Positions 2,117 to 11,961 are shown, counted from the stretch's first letter. The stretch: 24,000 nt of DNA from an uncultured Dehalococcoidales bacterium (GCA_964572285.1 CAZNEL010000008.1:9064-33063); one strand, 5' to 3'. Notes: a model not told the origin generated them from the letters alone. Numbers and translations are program-made.

Positions 2117-2566
2117 CTAGAACTTATCCCGACTATCCAGCAGTATTGTTACCGGGCCATCATTGTAGATTTCTACCTGCATATATTGCTGAAATCGTCC
2201 GGTTTCCACCTTTAATCCAGTGGCTCTAACCTGTTCCACGAAATACTGGAATAGTCCCTCAGCCCGTTCCGGTGGTGCTGCCTCGATAAAACTAGGCCGT
2301 CGTCCTTTCCTTGTATCAGCCAGCAGAGTAAACTGGCTCACCAGTAACAATTCACCTTTAATATCCAGAGCCGAAAGATTAAATCTACCTTCTTCATCAG
2401 CAAAAATGCGCATGTTAACCGTTTTTTGTACCAGATACTGCGCATCTTTTTCTGCGTCCCCATCAGCTACTCCGACAAAGACCACCAGCCCCTTGTCTAT
2501 CCGGCCTACTACTTCACCGGTCACACTAACTGAGGCTTCATTAACTCGCTGGAGTAGCGCTTTCAC
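2117..2566 (-). CDS. dtd: D-aminoacyl-tRNA deacylase
   Basis: 149 aa. MKALLQRVNEASVSV...VSQFTL...GRRPSF... is the classic Dtd sequence pattern and length. Confidence 0.95.
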   Translation of the reverse strand: MKALLQRVNEASVSVTGEVVGRIDKGLVVFVGVADGDAEKDAQYLVQKTVNMRIFADEEGRFNLSALDIKGELLLVSQFTLLADTRKGRRPSFIEAAPPERAEGLFQYFVEQVRATGLKVETGRFQQYMQVEIYNDGPVTILLDSRDKF

Positions 2567-2810
2567 TACTGTTTTCCTTACCCTTTACAGGGAATTGCTT
2601 CTTATTTTCCCCTGACTCTGTCACCTGACTTTTACGATTATCCGTAATATAAAAGCCACTGCCCTTAAAGATAATAGGAACCGAGTGAATAACACGACGT
2701 GATTTTCCTTCACATTCGGGACACACTGCTACCGGTTCCTCGTCAAACCTTTGCCGTCTTTCAAAAAGACAATGGCAGGCTTCACACTCATACTCATAGA
2801 TAGGCACCAT
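2541..2810 (-). CDS. FmdB-family putative regulatory zinc-ribbon protein
   Basis: MVPIYEYECEACHCLFE...CPECEG is the FmdB/CxxC-CxxC zinc-ribbon signature. GAGGTGA SD lies upstream. The 3' end overlaps the dtd start by 26 nt (operon). Confidence 0.85.
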   Translation of the reverse strand: MVPIYEYECEACHCLFERRQRFDEEPVAVCPECEGKSRRVIHSVPIIFKGSGFYITDNRKSQVTESGENKKQFPVKGKENSSESATPAS

Positions 2811-2838
2811 TTCACCTCACAAAAGAATTCTCCTACAC

Positions 2839-2867
2839 ATTTTACCGTAGTAGCCCCACTAAGGCAA
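2839..2867 (-). promoter_or_regulatory. Putative sigma70-type promoter for the zinc-ribbon/dtd/GNAT operon
   Basis: On the minus strand: TTGCCT (2867-2862), 17-nt spacer, TAAAAT (2844-2839), about 30 nt upstream of the ATG at 2810. Confidence 0.4.
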
Positions 2868-3013
2868 ATTAGAAAATTGGTTACCAACTATCCCTTAGTC
2901 CTCTTTGCATAGAGGGCCCAGCGCAAATAGCGGCTGACTATGGGCTTGCGCCCATCTAGAAGAACCCCGCCTCTATCTATACAGAGTACACAGAGAGTGG
3001 AGGAGACTAAGAG

Positions 3014-3043
3014 TTGACACAGCTGTGCAATTATGATTAGAAT
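3014..3043 (+). promoter_or_regulatory. Putative sigma70-type promoter of the tubulin/FtsZ-like gene
   Basis: Consensus -35 TTGACA (3014-3019), 18-nt spacer, -10 TAGAAT (3038-3043). It sits just upstream of the ORF start (3061/3073). Confidence 0.5.
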
Positions 3044-3060
3044 AGTGCACCTGACTACTA

Positions 3061-4248
3061 TTGAGGTGTGCAGTGAAGTTAACGATTATAGGTTGTGGGC
3101 AGTGTGGCGGCCGGATTGCTGACGAGTTTGCCCTACTAGGCAAAGCAACACACGCTCAGCGCAAAATTGAAGCAGTTACTAACGTCTTAGCTATCAACAC
3201 AGATATTGCCGATTTGAGTGGACTATCTCATATAGGGTCCGATTACCAGCACAGGATTCTCATCGGGTCCCAGAAAACAGGGGGCCATGGTGTGGGTAAA
3301 ATGAATGAGGTGGGGGCTGAAGTCGCCAGAGAAGATGGCGACAAGGTCTTGGAAAGTGTCAGCCAAACACACCGCTTTTTTGAGACAGACGCATTCCTGG
3401 TAATTGCCGGTGCTGCCGGCGGAACCGGCTCCGGAGCTCTGCCGGTAATAACACAACTCTTAAAAGAGCGTTATATCCACAAACCGGTATATAACCTGAT
3501 AGTTCTCCCCTTTAGATATGAAGAGATGACCGAGGAAAGGTCTATTTATAATGTAGGCACCTGCCTTAAATCTTCCTACCTGATTGCCGACGCTGTATTT
3601 TTGGTTGATAATCAAAGATTTATTAAAAAAAACGTACCTATTAGTAACAACCTGGCTAAAATAAACTATCAGGTAGTTAAGCCCTTTTATAACCTGCTCT
3701 GCGCCGGAGAAGAGATAAACTCCAAATATATCGGGTCAAAGGTGCTTGATGCCGGAGACATCATACAGACTCTGGCCGGATGGTCGGTCATTGGCTATGG
3801 CGAAGTAAAGCTACCACGGATCAGGCTTCTCGGTGAAGACAAGATTCACTTTAGGGACAAAGTTTCTGGCACCCAAAAGGGAGCCCAGGCGATGGATAAA
3901 GCCATCGGCGAGTTATCGCTCAAGTGCAACGCTGCCGATGCCAGAAGAGCCCTGTATCTCCTGACAGGACCACCTGAAGAAATGAGCATGGATCTGATAA
4001 ACGAACTCTCATCCTCTTTAAAGAATATAGCTACCGAGGCTATAATACGGAGTGGTGATTATCCCAGGGATAAGGGCTTATTGAGTGTTACCGTTGTTCT
4101 ATCTGACCTTGTTAACTCAAGGAAAGTGATGGGGTATTTTACTAAAACTATCAATTATATCTCTCTTACCAGGAGAAGGCGTGGAGAGACAGAGCATGAA
4201 CACAGAGGAATTGACGAGGTTTTCAAAGACATACCCTCATTACTGTAA
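3061..4248 (+). CDS. Divergent tubulin/FtsZ-superfamily GTPase (CetZ/tubulin-like motifs with an FtsZ-like C-terminal peptide)
   Basis: Start uncertain: TTG 3061, or GTG 3073 after GAGGTG. Motifs by residue number from 3061: IGCGQCGG (10-17, T1, GQxG type); GGHGVGKMNEVGAEVARED (74-92); AGGTGSG (119-125, tubulin-signature-like); FLVDNQRF (180-187); LDAGDI (229-234, T7-like DxxD); C-terminal DEVFKDIPSLL. Confidence 0.85.
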   Translation: MRCAVKLTIIGCGQCGGRIADEFALLGKATHAQRKIEAVTNVLAINTDIADLSGLSHIGSDYQHRILIGSQKTGGHGVGKMNEVGAEVAREDGDKVLESVSQTHRFFETDAFLVIAGAAGGTGSGALPVITQLLKERYIHKPVYNLIVLPFRYEEMTEERSIYNVGTCLKSSYLIADAVFLVDNQRFIKKNVPISNNLAKINYQVVKPFYNLLCAGEEINSKYIGSKVLDAGDIIQTLAGWSVIGYGEVKLPRIRLLGEDKIHFRDKVSGTQKGAQAMDKAIGELSLKCNAADARRALYLLTGPPEEMSMDLINELSSSLKNIATEAIIRSGDYPRDKGLLSVTVVLSDLVNSRKVMGYFTKTINYISLTRRRRGETEHEHRGIDEVFKDIPSLL

Positions 4249-4298
4249 TTAACCAACCTAAAGCCATATACAAAATGCGCCAGTAAACCCGGGCTTAC

Positions 4299-4760
4299 TT
4301 ACTTTGCCTTATCACCGTGGAAAATCTTCCAGGTTTGCTCTGAAGTTTCTCTCGAAATATTCCAGGCTTGCTCTATGGCTTCCTTACGCTCCCCTAGCAC
4401 TTGCCTTACACTCTCCTGGTAAACATCCACGGCTTTTTCTCTGGCCTTCTTATATGCTTCTTCGGCTTCGAACTCAGCCTTTTGACGATCTTTCAAAGCC
4501 TGCCCCAAAGTCTCTTCGCAGATAGTATCAGCCTTCTGTTCAGCTACTTTATAAAGCTTCTCCCTTTGCCTTTCTCTTTCCCGATAAGCTGTAGCTGCCT
4601 TTCTTTGAGCTTCCACATAGGCTGTTTGAGCTATCTCAAGTTGTCCCAGAACTTCACTAAAAGGGTCAGTAATTTGCTCAGGAACCATAGTTTCCGGTTC
4701 CAAGGATTGCTCTTCTGTTTGTTTAACAGCCCTTTTTATCTGTTCCTTTTCACTGACCAT
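4299..4760 (-). CDS. Hypothetical coiled-coil protein (153 aa, charged, phasin/apolipoprotein-like composition)
   Basis: Track ORF is 4299..4811 (GTG). I prefer ATG 4760 (MVSEKEQIK...), which has GGAGGT 8 nt upstream. Highly charged A/E/K/R/Q-rich sequence predicted helical. No family recognised. Confidence 0.6.
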   Translation of the reverse strand: MVSEKEQIKRAVKQTEEQSLEPETMVPEQITDPFSEVLGQLEIAQTAYVEAQRKAATAYRERERQREKLYKVAEQKADTICEETLGQALKDRQKAEFEAEEAYKKAREKAVDVYQESVRQVLGERKEAIEQAWNISRETSEQTWKIFHGDKAK

Positions 4761-4885
4761 GAAAAAATACCTCCACAAATCCTGATTCCCAACTTTATTT
4801 ACCAGTAACACATTTTAAAACCGGTTGCTGTCCACCGCAATAGTATATGCTAATACAGCTTGTTGCCATACATACTTTTTTAAGT

Positions 4886-6631
4886 CTATTCATCCTCTTC
4901 CTCCTCTTCCTCAAAACCCCGGTCCTTATTAGACGCATACATCTTGGCCAAGTACTTCAAACGGGTATCCATCCTTCTCTTAACATCCCTGGCTTCTTTA
5001 TCTTTATTTATGTCAACCTCTGCTATGTTTAGTGATTCACCAAAGGTCCTTGCCAACGACTCGGCTTTATCCTCGAAAGCTTCATCTGCTTCCTCACAAT
5101 TGACGTCATCTACCCGGGGTATATTCATCGTGATATCGGCAGCTTGCTTGGCTATCTGTTTACCAGTTTTATCTATTTTACCAGTGCCGCCCATTAATTC
5201 CTGAAATGCCCTTACTGACATCTCTGCCGCTTCTGCAGTTGCTCTTTTGGATGCTTCAGTAGCTTCCTTGCTCGCCCTTACCGATTCTTTAGCAGCCTTC
5301 TTAGCCGATTCGCTCACCTTCTCAGCCCTACTTATTGTTTCCTGTGATGCCCTTATTGATTGTTCAGCTGCTTCCTGGGCTGATTTACTTGCTTCCTCAG
5401 CCCTGCTTATTGCTTCCTGTGATGCCTTCATCCACGCCATAGCACTCGCTGTTGTCGTCTGGCTTATTTCCTGAGCTTTAGCAATAGCGTCTTGTGATGC
5501 TTTTATTGAGATCTCAGCAGTATCGTTAGCCGCTCTTATCGATTGCTCAGTCACCTCCCGGGCTGATTTACTTGCTTCCTCAGCCCTGCTTATTGCGTCT
5601 TGTGATGCTCTTATTGATTCTGCAGCCATTTCCCTGGCTGTCTTGCCTGTCTCCTCAGCCCCACCCGCCGCTTCTTCAGCTAATCTCCTCGCTTCTTCCG
5701 CAGTTTCCTTGGCTGAGTTCCCTGCTTCCTCGGCCTTAGAGATAGCTTCCCGTGATACCCGTATTGATTCCTCAGCCATTTCCTTGGCCAGTTTTATAGA
5801 TTGTTCAGCCGCCACCCAGGCTGATTTTCCTGCCTCCTCAGCCTTTATCGCCATTTGTGCAGATACCGTTGTTGCTGCTTCAACGGCTGCTTTGGCTGAC
5901 TCACCTGCTTTCTCAGCACTAGTTATTGCTTTCTCAAAGTTTTTTTTGTATGCCTTAGCCGTCTCATCAGCCGATTTAGTTGCTTTCTCAGCCCTTCGTA
6001 CTGCTTCCTGCGATGCCTTTGTTGTTAACTCAGCCATATCTTTAGTCTGTCTGCTTGCTTCCTCAGCCCTGCTTCTAGCATCCTGTGATATTCTTATCGA
6101 TATCTCAGCTGCCTCCTTGGCAGCTATACTTGTCTTTTCAGCCCGGTTTATTGCTTCCTGTGATATTCTTATTGATTGCTCAGCTGTCTCCTTGGCAGAT
6201 TTTGCTGTTCTCTCAGCTTCATGTACTGCTTCCGCAAACGTTGAGACCAGGGCTTCAGTAATTTCTTTAGTTGATTTTATCGTCTCTTCAGCCCTGCCTA
6301 TCGCTTCCTCAAAGGTTCTCTTCAACGCCTCAGCCATCTCCTCAGCCGATTTGCATACCTCCTCGGCCTTGGCCACTGCTTCTTGCGATGTTCTCGATGC
6401 TGATTTAGCCGTCTCTTTTGCCCGTTTGCCTACCTCCTCAGCCCTGTTTATCGCCTCCTGTGATACTCTTATCGATGTCTCAGCAGCCTCCCTGGCTAAT
6501 TCACCCAGTTTCTCAGCCCTGGCTACCGTTCCCTCAAACGTTCCGGTATCGCACGCTGTGCTCTCTAGAACTTCAGAGGAGATGTTGTCTAGTGTTCCGA
6601 CCTCAGGAGATTTAACTTTTCTACTACCCAT
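4886..6631 (-). CDS. Large Ala/Glu/Ser/Lys-rich tandem-repeat protein (25-residue repeats) with acidic C-terminal tail
   Basis: 581-aa ORF. ATG 6631 has AGAGGT upstream. Residues 38-482 form about 16.5 repeats with consensus RAEEAxKSAKETAEQSIRxSQEAIx. The C-terminal 99 aa are non-repetitive and end FEEEEEEDE. Antisense ORFs exist but are Cys/Ser/Leu-rich shadows. Confidence 0.7.
   Translation of the reverse strand: MGSRKVKSPEVGTLDNISSEVLESTACDTGTFEGTVARAEKLGELAREAAETSIRVSQEAINRAEEVGKRAKETAKSASRTSQEAVAKAEEVCKSAEEMAEALKRTFEEAIGRAEETIKSTKEITEALVSTFAEAVHEAERTAKSAKETAEQSIRISQEAINRAEKTSIAAKEAAEISIRISQDARSRAEEASRQTKDMAELTTKASQEAVRRAEKATKSADETAKAYKKNFEKAITSAEKAGESAKAAVEAATTVSAQMAIKAEEAGKSAWVAAEQSIKLAKEMAEESIRVSREAISKAEEAGNSAKETAEEARRLAEEAAGGAEETGKTAREMAAESIRASQDAISRAEEASKSAREVTEQSIRAANDTAEISIKASQDAIAKAQEISQTTTASAMAWMKASQEAISRAEEASKSAQEAAEQSIRASQETISRAEKVSESAKKAAKESVRASKEATEASKRATAEAAEMSVRAFQELMGGTGKIDKTGKQIAKQAADITMNIPRVDDVNCEEADEAFEDKAESLARTFGESLNIAEVDINKDKEARDVKRRMDTRLKYLAKMYASNKDRGFEEEEEEDE
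5186..6520 (-). repeat. Degenerate 75-nt tandem coding repeat (14 units of 25 codons, 2 units of 36 codons, 1 partial)
   Basis: Counted by hand between xAE(E/K) anchors: spacings are 25 residues, except two of 36 (25+11). At DNA level, strings such as gcttcctcagccctgcttattgc..cctgtgat recur (e.g. near 5391, 5574, 6055). Confidence 0.8.
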
Positions 6632-6649
6632 AACTTTGTACCTCTGCCT

Positions 6650-6678
6650 ATTCTACAATAGGTTGTTTAGTTTATCAA
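6650..6678 (-). promoter_or_regulatory. Putative sigma70-type promoter of the repeat-protein gene
   Basis: On the minus strand: TTGATA (6678-6673), 17-nt spacer, TAGAAT (6655-6650). The predicted transcript start would leave only a very short leader before ATG 6631, which weakens the call. Confidence 0.35.
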
Positions 6679-6985
6679 TAGTCATTTCTTGGCTCAAGGT
6701 TTATGCCCACATGTATGAGTAATGCTGTGGGAAACAATCAGGCCACAATGTTAAGCACTACGGTTCACCCCACATGCACGAAGAACAATATTCATTCCCA
6801 GTTCATTAATTGGATAGGGAACTGCTGCGCTACAGAGCAAACTTAGTTAAGATACAAACTACAATAAAGAACGAGACCCATATCTGGAGGAACCATTGCC
6901 GTGGGTAATGACAACACATTTTTCAATGTCCGTCGTTTCCTACATCCTATCTCTTATTCTTCTTACTATAATTATTTGTCTGAAG

Positions 6986-7978
6986 TTAACCCATAATCAA
7001 GGACAGAATCGCCTTTTCAGTATGGAGCCGATTCTCGGCTTCATCGTAGATAACAGACATAGGACCGTCTACTACCTCGGCCGTGGCTTGCATTCCCCTT
7101 CGTAAGGGCATACAGTTCATAAAGATAGCATTCTTAGCAGCAATATCAAAATGCCTCTCATTAATACACCAGCTAGCAAACGGCTCACGTAATTTTGCAT
7201 CTTCATCTTTGTTTGAAACTGACCCCCAGTAGGTAGCTAGAATGACATCGGCATCCTCGCAGGCTTCATCAAGACTACTTGTTATCTCTATTGTCGCCCC
7301 AGACTGCTCAGCCCGCCTTTTAGCCTCGTCCATATATTTCGAGTCCAAATCAAACCCGGGCGGGTAAGCAAAAGTCAGGTGCATCCCTAAGGTAGCTCCG
7401 GCTAAAGCTGTACTGTGAGCCATTCCCGGGCTTACCCAGTGGTTATATTGTACCCAAGGAACCGCTATCTTCTTTTTCTTAAAATCAGAGCCAAGCTTTT
7501 CCATTATGGTCATGATATCTGCCATCGTTTGGCAAGGGTGCTCCTCGTCATCAAGGGCATTAACCAGCGGTATACTAGCATTATCAGCCATTAACTCTAG
7601 GGTCTGACGACACTCACCATACTTCAACGTGGGGAACGGTGCTGGCAACCGAGCGAGGCGAACTACCAACCCGTTCAGGTAGCGGGAGAAAACCTGGGCA
7701 GTATCAACCCAGTTTTCCGATAGATGGCCCTGTATCGTTTCAATACCGAAATATTGAGCATGCCCACCTAATTGAGACATCGCCGTTTCAAAAGATGCTC
7801 GCGTTCTGGTGGATGGGCTACAGAACAGCATACCTAAATTCTTACCCGCTAAAAGGGGGGTGGGTTCCCCGCTGGCCAATTTCATCTTCAAGTCAAATGC
7901 CAGATTTAGAATCGTCTCCAAGTCTTCCCTGGAATAATCCAGCAAGGTTAAGAAATCTCTGCCCTTTAGTTTATTCAT
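6986..7978 (-). CDS. Aspartate/ornithine carbamoyltransferase-superfamily protein, atypical second-substrate motifs
   Basis: SPSTRTR (carbamoyl-phosphate site) and HPCQ are present, and the C-terminal AENRLHTEKA is OTC-like. However, the OTC SMG-loop (DxxxSMG) and HCLP motifs are replaced (TYWGSVS, NCMPLRRG), and there is an insertion (RLPAPFPTLKYGECRQ). AAGGAGG SD. Last gene of the TRAP operon. Confidence 0.85.
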   Translation of the reverse strand: MNKLKGRDFLTLLDYSREDLETILNLAFDLKMKLASGEPTPLLAGKNLGMLFCSPSTRTRASFETAMSQLGGHAQYFGIETIQGHLSENWVDTAQVFSRYLNGLVVRLARLPAPFPTLKYGECRQTLELMADNASIPLVNALDDEEHPCQTMADIMTIMEKLGSDFKKKKIAVPWVQYNHWVSPGMAHSTALAGATLGMHLTFAYPPGFDLDSKYMDEAKRRAEQSGATIEITSSLDEACEDADVILATYWGSVSNKDEDAKLREPFASWCINERHFDIAAKNAIFMNCMPLRRGMQATAEVVDGPMSVIYDEAENRLHTEKAILSLIMG

Positions 7979-8013
7979 CTAGTGTCCTCCTTCTATCGCA
8001 AAGTATTATAAAC

Positions 8014-9357
8014 TTACTTCTTAATCCCAAACACTACGTTAGGAAGCCACAAGGCCAGCTGAGGAAATACCATGACAAGAACAAGGGCAACCAACTGGAT
8101 GCCGACAAAGGGCACGATGGAGCGGTAGATATCCCCCATACTTATATCAATACCAGTTTCTCTTTTTATGAAGGGGGTAATCCCCCTCATAAAGAACAAG
8201 TTGAAGCCAAAGGGTGGCGTGAGGTAAGACGTTTCTATCGTCAGTACATAGAGAATGCCAAACCATAGCGGGTCGAAGCCCAGGGTTCGAACCACCGGGA
8301 AAAAGACGGGAGTAGTGATAGCCAGGATACCAAAGTTATCAAGAAAACACCCCAGGATAACCCAAATAAATACCATGATTATGAGAGGCCCCCAGCGACC
8401 TCCCGGTAACCCCAATAGCACCTTTCCTATAAGTTCATCAGCTCCTACAGCAATATAGGCAACGGAAAGACAACAAGCCCCGAAGATAATCCACATCACC
8501 ATGGCACTAAGACGAATAGTCTGGTCGCAGGCTTCCTTGAACATTCGCCAGTTAAACCTGCCGTAAACAGCGGCACAGATAATGCTGCCAAAAGCACCGA
8601 TACCCGCAGCTTCGGAAGGTGTAGCCATACCGGCAAGAATCGATCCCAGAACAGCGACTATCAATAAAACAGGCAGGATTACTGCTCTTAAGGAGATGAG
8701 TTTGTCTCTCCAGCTAGACCTCATTTCTGATGGTAACGCCGGAGCCAGATTTGGCTGCAAGAAACTTCTTATCAGTATATAGATAATGAACAGGGAGGAA
8801 AGGATAAGCCCGGGTATCATCCCACCGGCAAAGAGTTTACCCACCGACAGCTGTCCAAACAGGGCAAGGACTATCATTATGATGCTGGGAGGGATGAGGA
8901 CCCCCAGAGCCCCACCCGCCTGGACGGAGCCCATGCCCAATTCCTTCTCGTAGCCACGCTTAAGCATTGAGGGGACAGCAATGAGCCCCATACTGACGGT
9001 GGCAGCGGCGCTGATGCCGCTCATAGCAGCGAATATAGTGCAGATTATTACGGTTCCTACAGCTAAGCCGCCTCTTAATGGGCCAAACCAGCGATACATC
9101 ATCTCATAGGCATCGTCAGCCACTCCTGACCTTTCCAACACATTGGCCATAAAGATAAATAGAGGAATAGCAACCAGGATAAAGTTGGTCATCTTGCCGA
9201 AGATATCCAGCGCCACGGCAGGTAACGCCGATATGTCCCACAGGAACACGATAAATATTACCCCAATCCCCCCTAAGGTGAAAGCCACGGGTAATCCCAG
9301 GGCGAGAAGCAGTACCATGGAGCCAAAAAACAATATGGTAATAAGCTCTATACTCAT
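8014..9357 (-). CDS. dctM: TRAP transporter large permease subunit
   Basis: 447-aa polytopic membrane protein with typical DctM sequence and length. ATGA overlap with dctQ. Confidence 0.95.
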   Translation of the reverse strand: MSIELITILFFGSMVLLLALGLPVAFTLGGIGVIFIVFLWDISALPAVALDIFGKMTNFILVAIPLFIFMANVLERSGVADDAYEMMYRWFGPLRGGLAVGTVIICTIFAAMSGISAAATVSMGLIAVPSMLKRGYEKELGMGSVQAGGALGVLIPPSIIMIVLALFGQLSVGKLFAGGMIPGLILSSLFIIYILIRSFLQPNLAPALPSEMRSSWRDKLISLRAVILPVLLIVAVLGSILAGMATPSEAAGIGAFGSIICAAVYGRFNWRMFKEACDQTIRLSAMVMWIIFGACCLSVAYIAVGADELIGKVLLGLPGGRWGPLIIMVFIWVILGCFLDNFGILAITTPVFFPVVRTLGFDPLWFGILYVLTIETSYLTPPFGFNLFFMRGITPFIKRETGIDISMGDIYRSIVPFVGIQLVALVLVMVFPQLALWLPNVVFGIKK

Positions 9358-9938: not shown

Positions 9939-11050
9939 CTAAATGCGCCCCAAGCCTGTGAGGTAATCCTTGTAAACTTGAGCACCTCTAGCAAAATAAT
10001 CGTCGGTGCTAGCTTTCTGGTCAAGATAATATAAGGATCTCTCCCTGAACTTAGCGATTGTCTCATCAGTCCATATTGACTTGGTGACCCCGTAGTTCTG
10101 CGACATGTCTTCCCAAGCTGCCATGTCGTCCTGATAGAAGGCGGCATAATAGTGAACAAAAGCCTCCTCACCAGCCATATCAAGGATAGTCTTGAGGTCA
10201 TCAGGCAAAGAGTTATAAAGTTCTAGGTTGATAAGAAAGCCGGTGCCAAGTATGGGCAAATCTGGCGGCAATACATAGTATTGACATACTTCATGAAGCC
10301 CAAAGTCATAGAAGTCAGCTAGAGGACTCCAGCAGCAAGCGTCAATTACGCCAGTAGCCAGCGCAATGTAAATCTCCTCAGCAGGGACTTGAACCACAGA
10401 ACCTCCTAGCTCTTCGTAGATATTCCCGAGTGTGCCGAAGGTCCTTATCTTGAGCCCTTTTACATCACTTTCCTTTGTTAATTCCTTGGTTGACATCATG
10501 TCCCGTAGTAGGGACCGGTATGGTAGGCGATGTAGTGTAGATTATGTTCGGCGTAAGCCTCCCTCATAACATCGTTAAGGCCAAAGTTCCTTTGCAGGGT
10601 GAGAAATTCAGGAATACTCTCTAAAAGCCACGGCCAGCCGAATAACAGCTCAGCTGAGGGTATCGAACCCATGTCATAGGTGCTAGAACTGTAACCCATC
10701 TCAATTATCCCTTCTCCGACAGCTCCGTGGACTTCAAAGCTGGGTACTAACTCACCGGCGGCGAAGTGCTTGATCTGGATACGCCCGCCAGATGCCTGTT
10801 CGACCGCCTTAATATAGGGCTCAGTACGCTCGACATAGCTGGTACTCCCGGCAGGAGCATAATCCTGGAGTTTCCATTGATAGACCTCCGCTGTCGGGGA
10901 CGGTGCTGGTGTAGGACTTGGGCTTGGCGATGGAGATGGCGTTGGAGACGGCGTCGGTGCCGGCGTCGGTGCCGGTGCAGCACAAGCTGCCAAAAGAAGC
11001 GAAGTTCCTAATACTAAAGCAAGTAAAACAGTTAAAATCCTCGCTTTCAA
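9939..11050 (-). pseudogene. dctP: TRAP substrate-binding lipoprotein split by a frameshift into 10496..11050 and 9939..10499
   Basis: The N-terminal fragment starts at TTG 11050 (AAGGAGG 8 nt upstream): MKARILTVLLALVLGTSLLLAAC lipobox, then a Pro/Thr/Ser-rich linker, ending ...HTGPYYGT*. The C-terminal fragment starts MMSTKELTKESDVKGLKIR... in the -1 frame with an ATGA overlap. One extra base in the C3 run at 10502-10504 would restore ...GPYYGDMMSTKEL... Confidence 0.7.
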
Positions 11051-11238
11051 TTTGATAACCTCCTTATAAAATTTAGTCAACCGGGTATTTAATATAATCA
11101 CCTCATTGCTCACCTCCTATCTTAATACTCATTGGCCTTCTGTCCTAGTCATTCAGACAAGCCTCCTAGCATCACAGCAATACAAAAATAGAACTATACA
11201 GCTTGTCAATACATAGTCAGACATAGTTTTGAAATTAA

Positions 11239-11267
11239 GTGAAATTATCAAATTTTCAGTGTATAAT
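11239..11267 (+). promoter_or_regulatory. Putative promoter of the NYN-domain gene
   Basis: GTGAAA (11239-11244), 17-nt spacer, consensus TATAAT (11262-11267). It lies about 60 nt upstream of ATG 11329. Confidence 0.4.
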
Positions 11268-11328
11268 AGGTTACAGAGAGATAGAGAGATTATCAAAAGT
11301 CACTGATAGGTCTAAAAAGGAGAAGGTT

Positions 11329-11961
11329 ATGGAAGATAGAGTTGCTATCTTCATAGATGGCAGTAATCTATATCATGCTTTAAAAAGTAACTTTAGGCGT
11401 AACGACCTCAACTTTACCGAGTTTGCTAACAGACTCTGTGGCTCGAGACGTTTGTTCCGAACCTACTATTACAACGTGTTACAGGACTCAGCTCAACGTC
11501 CCGATGGCTCCAGGGAACAACAGGAATTCCTTGGTATCCTCCGTAAGACACCATACCTAGAAGTTCGCCTAGGGACTACCAAGATAGCACAGGGAATACC
11601 TGTTGAAAAGGGCATAGATATTATGTTGGCCTCGGACCTGCTGTATTTCGCCTGGAACAACTTCTACGATGTAGCCGTCTTGGTAAGTGGAGATGCTGAT
11701 TTTGCTTATGCGCTACAAGCCGTAAAGAACATGGGGAAACATGTTGAGGTTGCCTACTTTGAGAGCGGAATATCTAAGGACCTGTTAGATGCAGCCGATA
11801 ACCGACATCAGTTAGACCAGGGGTTCTTCCGTGGTTTGTGGGTAGGTAAACGTCATGGCAAACGCAAACCAGTTGGCAAAGAAGGAACCAAGACTGACCG
11901 AGGTGGCGGGTTAATCTCTTCACCTGAACCAAATACCCACAACAATACTCCACACCAGTAG
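11329..11961 (+). CDS. NYN-domain (LabA/DUF88-like) putative RNase
   Basis: Track ORF starts at 11239. I prefer ATG 11329 after AAAAGGAGAAGG. VAIFIDGSNLYHAL... and VLVSGDADFAYAL are the NYN/LabA acidic-residue motifs. The C-terminal tail is basic and low-complexity. Confidence 0.85.
   Translation: MEDRVAIFIDGSNLYHALKSNFRRNDLNFTEFANRLCGSRRLFRTYYYNVLQDSAQRPDGSREQQEFLGILRKTPYLEVRLGTTKIAQGIPVEKGIDIMLASDLLYFAWNNFYDVAVLVSGDADFAYALQAVKNMGKHVEVAYFESGISKDLLDAADNRHQLDQGFFRGLWVGKRHGKRKPVGKEGTKTDRGGGLISSPEPNTHNNTPHQ

Follow-up and report, generated by a model that had tools for sequence, protein, structure and literature searches.

A CetZ-like GTPase gene convergent with two coiled-coil genes, a candidate cytoskeletal module of Dehalococcoidia

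In a 24,000-nucleotide stretch of DNA from an uncultured Dehalococcoidales bacterium (GCA_964572285.1 CAZNEL010000008.1:9064-33063; the whole stretch is referred to below as the window), gene calls confirmed that the region between 3.0 and 6.7 kb contains the three adjacent genes that a first-pass annotation had placed there, i.e. the gene of a tubulin/FtsZ-like GTPase on the plus strand and, on the minus strand, the genes of a 153-amino acid protein (named here cc153) and of a 581-amino acid protein made of 25-residue repeats (named here REP). The GTPase is classified below as CetZ-like, and its gene was found convergent with those of REP and cc153 in many other genomes. Judged from sequence, these results supported the earlier reading of the three genes as a candidate cytoskeletal module, and we consider it fairly probable that they constitute one conserved functional module of Dehalococcoidia, organized in two convergent transcription units and providing a polymer-binding scaffold.

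The three genes, their products and their promoter-like sites

The three genes occupy the following positions, counted from the first letter of the window.

3073-4248, plus strand: GTPase gene, 391 amino acids, GTG start preceded by GAGGTG
4299-4760, minus strand: cc153 gene, 153 amino acids, ATG start with GGAGG before it
4886-6631, minus strand: REP gene, 581 amino acids

The mechanically called open reading frame (ORF) of the GTPase begins at a TTG codon at 3061, and the homologues begin with MKL or VKL at the position of the GTG codon chosen here. The protein matched the Pfam families Tubulin (PF00091; 114.3 bits with a cut-off of 33, 1.1e-32, residues 7-189) and CetZ_C (PF21011; 69.8 bits with a cut-off of 21.6, 2.7e-19, residues 196-357), which confirmed its earlier assignment as a tubulin/FtsZ-like GTPase. 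Its closest relatives of solved structure were CetZ1 (4b46, 1e-43) and CetZ2 (4b45, 2.5e-31) of Haloferax volcanii, followed by a Methanosaeta CetZ (4e-16) and the best FtsZ (4e-15), most FtsZs being matched at about 1e-8, and then by weaker matches to tubulin-like proteins (no stronger than 1.7e-6) and to TubZ (5e-5). On these domain matches and nearest solved structures, the GTPase is classified as CetZ-like.

Canonical FtsZ was rejected as the identity of this protein, which failed the FtsZ equivalog TIGR00065 (64.5 vs 295.2 bits), had no FtsZ_C match in the Pfam search and coexists, as a family, with a true FtsZ in another locus, L075. There (3811-9176), mraZ, rsmH, ftsA and a canonical ftsZ (Tubulin plus FtsZ_C) are followed by a CetZ-like paralogue, the FtsA and FtsZ products being confirmed by Pfam, and the mur, ftsW and ftsI genes are absent between rsmH and ftsA. 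The window GTPase is accordingly regarded as separate from the division FtsZ. In L075 the CetZ-like paralogue is followed by nrdR and then by a 715-amino acid ORF that resembles a ribonucleotide reductase by eye.

Four elements of the GTPase were located.

3418-3435, plus strand: tubulin signature GGTGSG, residues 116-121 (AGGTGSG at 115-121), invariant in the homologue alignment
3748-3759, plus strand: T7-loop DAGD, residues 226-229, with D226 and D229 invariant among the aligned homologues
4171-4182, plus strand: basic linker RRRR, residues 367-370, 21 residues ahead of the C-terminus
4228-4245, plus strand: C-terminal peptide DIPSLL, residues 386-391, with D386, I387 and P388 invariant

The DAGD of the T7-loop aligns with the DSSE of CetZ1, where the acidic residue is presumably the catalytic position, and a basic stretch rich in Lys or Arg is kept at the position of the RRRR linker across the GTPase homologues. 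The DIPSLL tail resembles both the LESLF of CetZ1 and the LDVPSFL (within ELDVPSFLRK) of the canonical FtsZ of L075 (6686-7816), and also the DIPAFL-type peptide of FtsZ, which we take to be the one that binds FtsA, ZipA and SepF. The LESLF of CetZ1 is conserved and hydrophobic, and its mutation abolishes rod development (bioRxiv 10.1101/2024.04.08.588506). It is possible that the CetZ-like GTPase and FtsZ use the same membrane anchor (FtsA or SepF).

More than 6000 clusters matched the GTPase, the top 120 being at least 68% identical to it, and when a single genome of each GTDB species was scanned, its relatives were found at 478 places at least, so that GTPases of this CetZ-like kind are common in a class of bacteria. 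The best 79 loci all belonged to metagenome-assembled genomes of Dehalococcoidia, except for two short contigs labelled Bathyarchaeota (L003) and Syntrophaceae (L067), whose GTPases are of the Dehalococcoidia type (73% and 60% identity, respectively). L003 also holds cc153 and L067 holds gap; both contigs are probably binning errors, which could mislead taxonomic surveys of CetZ-like genes.

As to REP, its repeats and its C-terminal elements lie as follows.

5222-6523, minus strand: about 17 tandem 25-residue repeats, residues 37-470
4937-4963, minus strand: C-terminal motif RLKYLAKMY, residues 557-565, with R, L and M invariant in the REP alignment
4889-4912, minus strand: acidic tail EEEEEEDE, also a 9-bp DNA repeat

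The description of REP as a 25-mer repeat protein was borne out by its self-identity, which peaked at lags of 25 (31%), 50 (28%) and 75 (22%) and amounted to about 5-16% at most other lags. Its hydrophobic residues recur with a period of 3.57-3.58 (25/7) over about 430 residues, that is, three heptads and one 4-residue stutter per repeat, and its composition is rich in Ala, Glu, Lys and Ser (20% Ala, 16% Glu). AlphaFold2, run on the single sequence, predicted long helices at residues 146-324 and 329-479 with low confidence. Among 62 REP homologues of about 400-918 residues, the best period was 25 in 47 and 50 or 75 in 10 more; that of the REP of L022 is 66 residues. The motif R[LM]xxLxxM[YF] is present near the C-terminus of nearly all 62 (variants occur in L054 and L068) and is followed in most of them, after a short spacer, by an acidic tail. 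In a sub-clade (L021, L022, L024, L028, L032 and L054) the C-terminus is DDHVIE[ED]D, not a plain acidic run. Both the acidic tail of REP and the RRRR linker of the GTPase, to which the first-pass annotation had drawn attention, are therefore present and conserved in homologues, a pattern compatible with the tail meeting the linker.

The protein cc153 had been called a coiled-coil protein. A long helix was indeed predicted by AlphaFold2, continuous over residues 32-147 (116 residues) with a predicted local distance difference test score (pLDDT) of about 98, but its hydrophobic period is 3.66, or 11/3, which corresponds to hendecads rather than to heptads. The conserved blocks are EVLGQAE...AYxxYxEAQ in the N-terminal part and EQAW...EQAWxI[FY] in the C-terminal one. 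The family is small: a set of 1.84 billion proteins contains 138 representatives of it at 50% identity. We also considered, and rejected, the possibility that cc153 and REP are homologous (hhalign probability of 4%).

Pfam and NCBIfam contained no family for cc153 and no curated family match for REP, and the PDB sequence and profile searches with either protein yielded designed helical bundles and chance matches alone. We took the homologues of both proteins from the fetched loci described below, a word-indexed search having returned none for cc153 and six for REP, four of which were PAS histidine kinases; its pre-filter seems to have been swamped by low-complexity words. From their sequences, REP and cc153 each appear to represent a new protein family.

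The first-pass annotation had also assigned to each of the two transcription units its own promoter with the same -10 hexamer, TAGAAT, and such sites are present.

3014-3043, plus strand: promoter-like site of the GTPase gene, TTGACA-18-TAGAAT, 11/12 match to the sigma-70-like consensus
6650-6678, minus strand: promoter-like site of REP and probably cc153, TTGATA-17-TAGAAT, 10/12 match

These sites are the top two sigma-70-like matches within 2500-7200, but the total of such matches in that interval is not above chance (9 vs 6.2 +/- 2.5 in shuffles). When they were compared with L001, the closest genomic relative, each site was found to sit in a near-identical island while the surrounding spacer DNA has diverged, and it is because of these conserved islands, not because of the match count, that the promoter-like sites are credible. 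A pattern of the form TTGnnn-N16-19-TAnnnT was found upstream of 89 of 103 homologous GTPase genes, of 52 of 62 REP genes (with TAGAAT in 30 of those) and of merely 16 of 41 cc153 homologues. In most loci cc153 lies 55-110 nucleotides downstream of REP, and the convergent stop codons of the GTPase gene and the coiled-coil gene are 26-80 nucleotides apart. Folding of the 50-nucleotide convergent gap and of the 125-nucleotide gap between REP and cc153 was no better than that of shuffled sequences (z = +0.96, -0.16 and -0.20), and a scan of the region revealed no intrinsic terminators. Because cc153 seldom has a promoter-like site of its own, lies close to REP and is separated from it by a spacer that folds no better than shuffled sequence, the two genes probably form one transcript, convergent to the GTPase gene.

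Conservation of the gene neighbourhood

Recurrence of the three genes together in other genomes had been set beforehand as a test of the earlier reading, and the trio was found again, in the convergent layout, in dozens of Dehalococcoidia genomes and contigs from metagenomes. When the window proteins were compared by tblastn with 79 GTDB loci retrieved by means of the GTPase (58-86% identity), REP was detected in 60 loci and cc153 in 43, in every case right after the GTPase gene and in convergent orientation to it. The other neighbours in the window, including dtd, fmdB and the carbamoyltransferase and TRAP genes, were found in none of the 79 loci. Gene maps showed that the flanks of the module are of at least seven different kinds and consist of varied housekeeping genes (enolase, GAPDH, dnaX, recN, two-component systems and others).

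Four recurrent layouts emerged from ORF clustering and the gene maps. In the first one, GTPase> <cc153 <REP, the three genes lie in varied contexts (the window, L001, L004, L010, L016, L033, L061, L063 and others), and in the second one, GTPase> <REP, cc153 is absent (20 loci). The third layout, gap GTPase1> <cc153 <REP GTPase2> dnaX-ybaB-recR, is that of many Dehalococcoidales and contains two GTPase paralogues about 4 kb apart, REP and GTPase2 diverging from a common spacer; it was observed, at around 3.7-9.2 kb, in L034, L036-L038, L040, L042, L043, L047 and L048, and also in L050, L052, L053, L056, L060 and L071. The fourth one, gap GTPase> dnaX, has no coiled-coil genes.

In a neighbour-joining tree of 102 GTPases, the REP-linked clades were placed apart from the dnaX-adjacent clade. 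The GTPases were also divided, independently of their context, into those with YF and those with YY in the last helix. A convergent REP with the C-terminal motif accompanied 56 of the 61 evaluable YF-type GTPases vs 0 of the 20 YY-type ones, and two of the five YF-type exceptions carry diverged REPs (L068 and L054). The substitutions that distinguish linked from unlinked GTPases fall within the final 65 residues and in the tail (S327/N, F356/Y and I360/T), the tail being A[FL]KDIPSLL in the REP-linked proteins vs ASKDIPSLL in the unlinked ones. Because the module is kept while its flanks change, and follows one GTPase paralogue and not its sister, the gene arrangement argues for selection on linkage.

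A different explanation for this arrangement is that the adjacency reflects inherited synteny devoid of functional meaning, or that the 581-amino acid ORF is a low-complexity artefact. In agreement with it, all the loci come from one bacterial class, so that shared ancestry feeds the counts, and the strand opposite REP also has a long ORF (359 amino acids). However, the trio is conserved while the flanking genes are not at all, and the association tracks one paralogue of the GTPase. Moreover, across 25-68% identity REP retains the same reading frame, the 25-residue register, the C-terminal motif and a promoter of its own, and independent metagenome contigs have gene calls for exactly the same 581-amino acid product. 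This explanation is thus largely refuted, and we consider it very improbable.

When metagenome contigs were searched starting from cc153, a convergent GTPase gene was present at 36 of 72 evaluable loci and REP lay upstream at 31 of 61. An upstream REP always came with a convergent GTPase gene, except in L090 and in L159, the latter having the GTPase gene on the same strand. Some of the unlinked cc153 paralogues lie between XRE-type helix-turn-helix genes and the gene of a double helix-turn-helix protein, and others after a MerR/AlpA-like helix-turn-helix gene or before the genes of secreted surface proteins of 866-1182 amino acids. Because so many of its paralogues are found in other settings, cc153 is less module-specific than REP. 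The unlinked paralogues include those of L098-L100, L104, L113, L118, L119, L133, L135, L145, L155, L157 and L161.

The surroundings of the module in the window were assigned by Pfam and NCBIfam searches. On its left there are an FmdB-type zinc-ribbon gene and dtd, and on its right a carbamoyltransferase gene and then a TRAP transporter. The dtd and transporter genes that had been given as flanks are hence both in the vicinity, but the FmdB-type gene lies between dtd and the GTPase gene, and the carbamoyltransferase gene separates REP from the transporter. Since recA, recX, rny and plsY-like genes are present farther along, the window is taken to be bacterial chromosome; its base composition revealed no foreign island, and it contains no tRNA or Rfam RNA.

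This chromosomal setting bears on the hypothesis that the three genes segregate the DNA of a plasmid, prophage or other mobile element in the manner of TubZ (type III), the two coiled-coil proteins serving as adaptors. Plasmid and phage DNA is indeed positioned by GTPases of the tubulin family that have small accessory genes (TubZ and PhuZ), the module occurs in many different genomic contexts, and cc153 paralogues adjoin small helix-turn-helix genes. Nevertheless, the module lies between gap and dnaX in many genomes, the TubZ match is weak (5e-5 vs 1e-43 for CetZ1), the module includes no DNA-binding partner and is not bordered by tandem DNA repeats, and a search of 2.9 million viral contigs gave matches of only 28-32% identity. 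Because no PHROG or PADLOC family fits and close viral relatives were lacking among those contigs, a phage, defence or mobile origin was rejected, and we give the segregation hypothesis hardly any weight.

Three other features of the window deserve mention. The carbamoyltransferase (6986-7978, minus strand) scored under the curated cut-off of all ornithine, aspartate, putrescine and N-acetylornithine models (at best 271 vs 306 bits) and may use a different substrate. The gene of the TRAP solute-binding protein DctP (9939-11113, minus strand) is broken into a pair of overlapping ORFs whose frames differ and which cover positions 8-113 and 123-280 of the Pfam DctP profile; it is either a pseudogene with a frameshift or the result of an error in the assembly. 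An NYN-domain (LabA-like) protein is encoded at 11239-11961 (plus strand), immediately upstream of recA-recX-rny.

A possible scaffold and its role

According to the scaffold proposal, the GTPase would form GTP-dependent filaments, like CetZ1, and REP, as a long alanine-rich coiled-coil rod, would bind the resulting polymer, together with cc153 where the latter is present. The binding of REP would bundle, space or anchor the polymer, and FtsA or a similar membrane anchor may be what the DIPSLL tail of the GTPase docks on. The module would then be a scaffold beneath the membrane, distinct from the division ring of FtsZ, and could plausibly shape or organize the envelope of cells reported to lack peptidoglycan. 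Polymerization, the direct binding of REP and cc153 and the cellular role are all steps that we infer.

Alternatively, the three genes might belong to a shared process or regulon without any binding of REP and cc153 to the GTPase. REP would then be an amphipathic protein that coats or scaffolds some other structure, e.g. a phasin- or apolipoprotein-like cover of membranes or inclusions, or a nucleoid-associated rod. The Phasin_2 family (PF09361) matched 6 of 30 REP homologues and ApoLp-III 2 of 30, and the summed Phasin_2 score was over the cut-off in 2 of 10. The composition of REP, rich in Ala, Glu, Lys and Ser, the position of the module next to dnaX-ybaB-recR in many genomes and the occurrence of cc153 paralogues in settings devoid of a GTPase would also fit this alternative. 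However, the REP of the window had no Phasin_2 match, two of the three homologues examined closely had no single passing stretch, and the signal is spread over the repeats and inconsistent in the family. Membership of REP in Phasin_2 was rejected on these grounds, as the scores were mostly sums of weak repeat matches, and the patchy Phasin_2 and BORCS6 matches, absent or under the cut-off in the window REP, are read as compositional. In addition, the strict paralogue-specific adjacency across changing flanks would be hard to explain without a direct functional tie, and the conserved C-terminal motif and tail of REP look like a docking element and not like a coat. We therefore regard a shared process without binding as rather unlikely.

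Several observations weigh against the scaffold proposal. About half of the metagenomic cc153 homologues are paralogues away from any GTPase, linked and unlinked copies of cc153 are intermixed in its tree, and cc153 is missing from a whole sub-clade that keeps the GTPase and REP (the 20 loci of the second layout). Some CetZ-like GTPases of Dehalococcoidales have no REP nearby (gap-GTPase-dnaX), and the AlphaFold2 model of REP has a mean pLDDT of 60. The loci are related by descent, so that the counts are not independent events, and convergent genes are not co-transcribed, the evidence of linkage being positional. As to cell shape, the arguments are an analogy with archaeal CetZ1 and one remark in a proteomics study.

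To our knowledge, Dehalococcoides lacks peptidoglycan, and Dehalococcoidia are reported to carry an archaeal-style surface layer. [quoted passage not shown] Three things suggest a role of the module in cell shape or envelope organization, namely what archaeal CetZ1 does, the lack of mur, ftsW and ftsI in the L075 cluster and this D. mccartyi report. That the CetZ-type homologue and the two non-heptad coiled-coil proteins form a membrane-associated cytoskeleton setting the disc shape of Dehalococcoidia is a tentative idea, possible though not one that we favour. If it were true, there would be a bacterial cell-shape system built on a non-FtsZ polymer of the tubulin superfamily, and REP and cc153 would be the first proteins to serve as dedicated binding partners of a member of the CetZ family.

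Relation to known systems

FtsZ is a polymerizing GTPase with a C-terminal docking peptide and helical partners that bundle or anchor it, such as ZapA, ZapB, EzrA and SepF. The window GTPase is like FtsZ in its tail, DIPSLL resembling the LDVPSFL of the FtsZ of L075. Unlike the FtsZ modulators, REP and cc153 are encoded beside the GTPase in a fixed convergent layout, and neither these two proteins nor 30-31 homologues of each matched ZapA, ZapB, EzrA or SepF in Pfam or NCBIfam. The comparison with these modulators made in the first-pass annotation consequently stands as an analogy and not as family membership.

The coiled-coil proteins of the intermediate filament type (crescentin, FilP and Scy) are cytoskeletal scaffolds that act without a nucleotide, and Scy and FilP have a 51-residue repeat. 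They are long rods with a non-heptad regularity, as is REP with its 25/7 period, and a long helical rod with a regular hydrophobic period is found both in REP, as predicted helices, and in cc153. In contrast, no sequence homology was detected, and we know of no genetic pairing of crescentin, FilP or Scy with a tubulin homologue.

Bacterial tubulin-family genes other than ftsZ that lie beside dedicated accessory genes are represented by TubZ-TubR(-TubY) and by the BtubA/B-BtubC of Prosthecobacter. The module differs from them in its weak TubZ match, in the lack of a DNA-binding adaptor or centromere, in its chromosomal housekeeping context and in its unrelated accessory proteins. A polymer of the tubulin superfamily with helical modulators or accessory genes is thus known already, from FtsZ with ZapA, ZapB and EzrA and from TubZ and BtubA/B.

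The likeness is greatest to archaeal CetZ, with which the window GTPase shares its best solved-structure matches, the CetZ_C domain, the tubulin signature, the acidic residue of the T7-loop and a short, conserved, hydrophobic C-terminal peptide (IPSLL vs LESLF in CetZ1), as well as, in the case of the CetZ-like paralogue of L075, the coexistence with a canonical FtsZ. Unlike CetZ, its host is bacterial and lies outside the archaeal (Euryarchaeota) distribution, recent papers calling the family archaea-specific (PMC11621097, PMC9856176). The conserved neighbourhoods of archaeal cetZ contain type IV pilus, cofactor and sugar-epimerase genes (PMC9856176) and no coiled-coil genes, whereas the window GTPase gene adjoins those of REP and cc153. 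In the available part of one study (PMC9871819), Dehalococcoidia sequences are listed merely as 'CetZ-like', in sparse paraphyletic groups, with C-termini that match the CetZ_C model, and that part describes no partner genes for them. Under the tentative disc-shape idea given above, an exchange of the family between archaea and these bacteria is also conceivable.

A full-text literature search found no description of the REP family, the cc153 family or the module. The current labels are misleading for the GTPase ('cell division GTPase FtsZ') and uninformative for REP and cc153 ('hypothetical protein'). What appears to be new is therefore a bacterial branch of a supposedly archaeal family together with two new, genetically dedicated families of coiled-coil partners. 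CetZ proteins are regarded as regulators of cell shape specific to archaea, and the CetZ studies consulted identify no protein that binds them directly and present their mechanism as still to be explained; REP and cc153 are concrete partner candidates, of which archaeal gene context has offered none. They would also give a handle on how Dehalococcoides-type bioremediation organisms organize and shape a cell reported to be wall-less, and they bear on the spread and diversification of tubulin-family cytoskeletons between domains.

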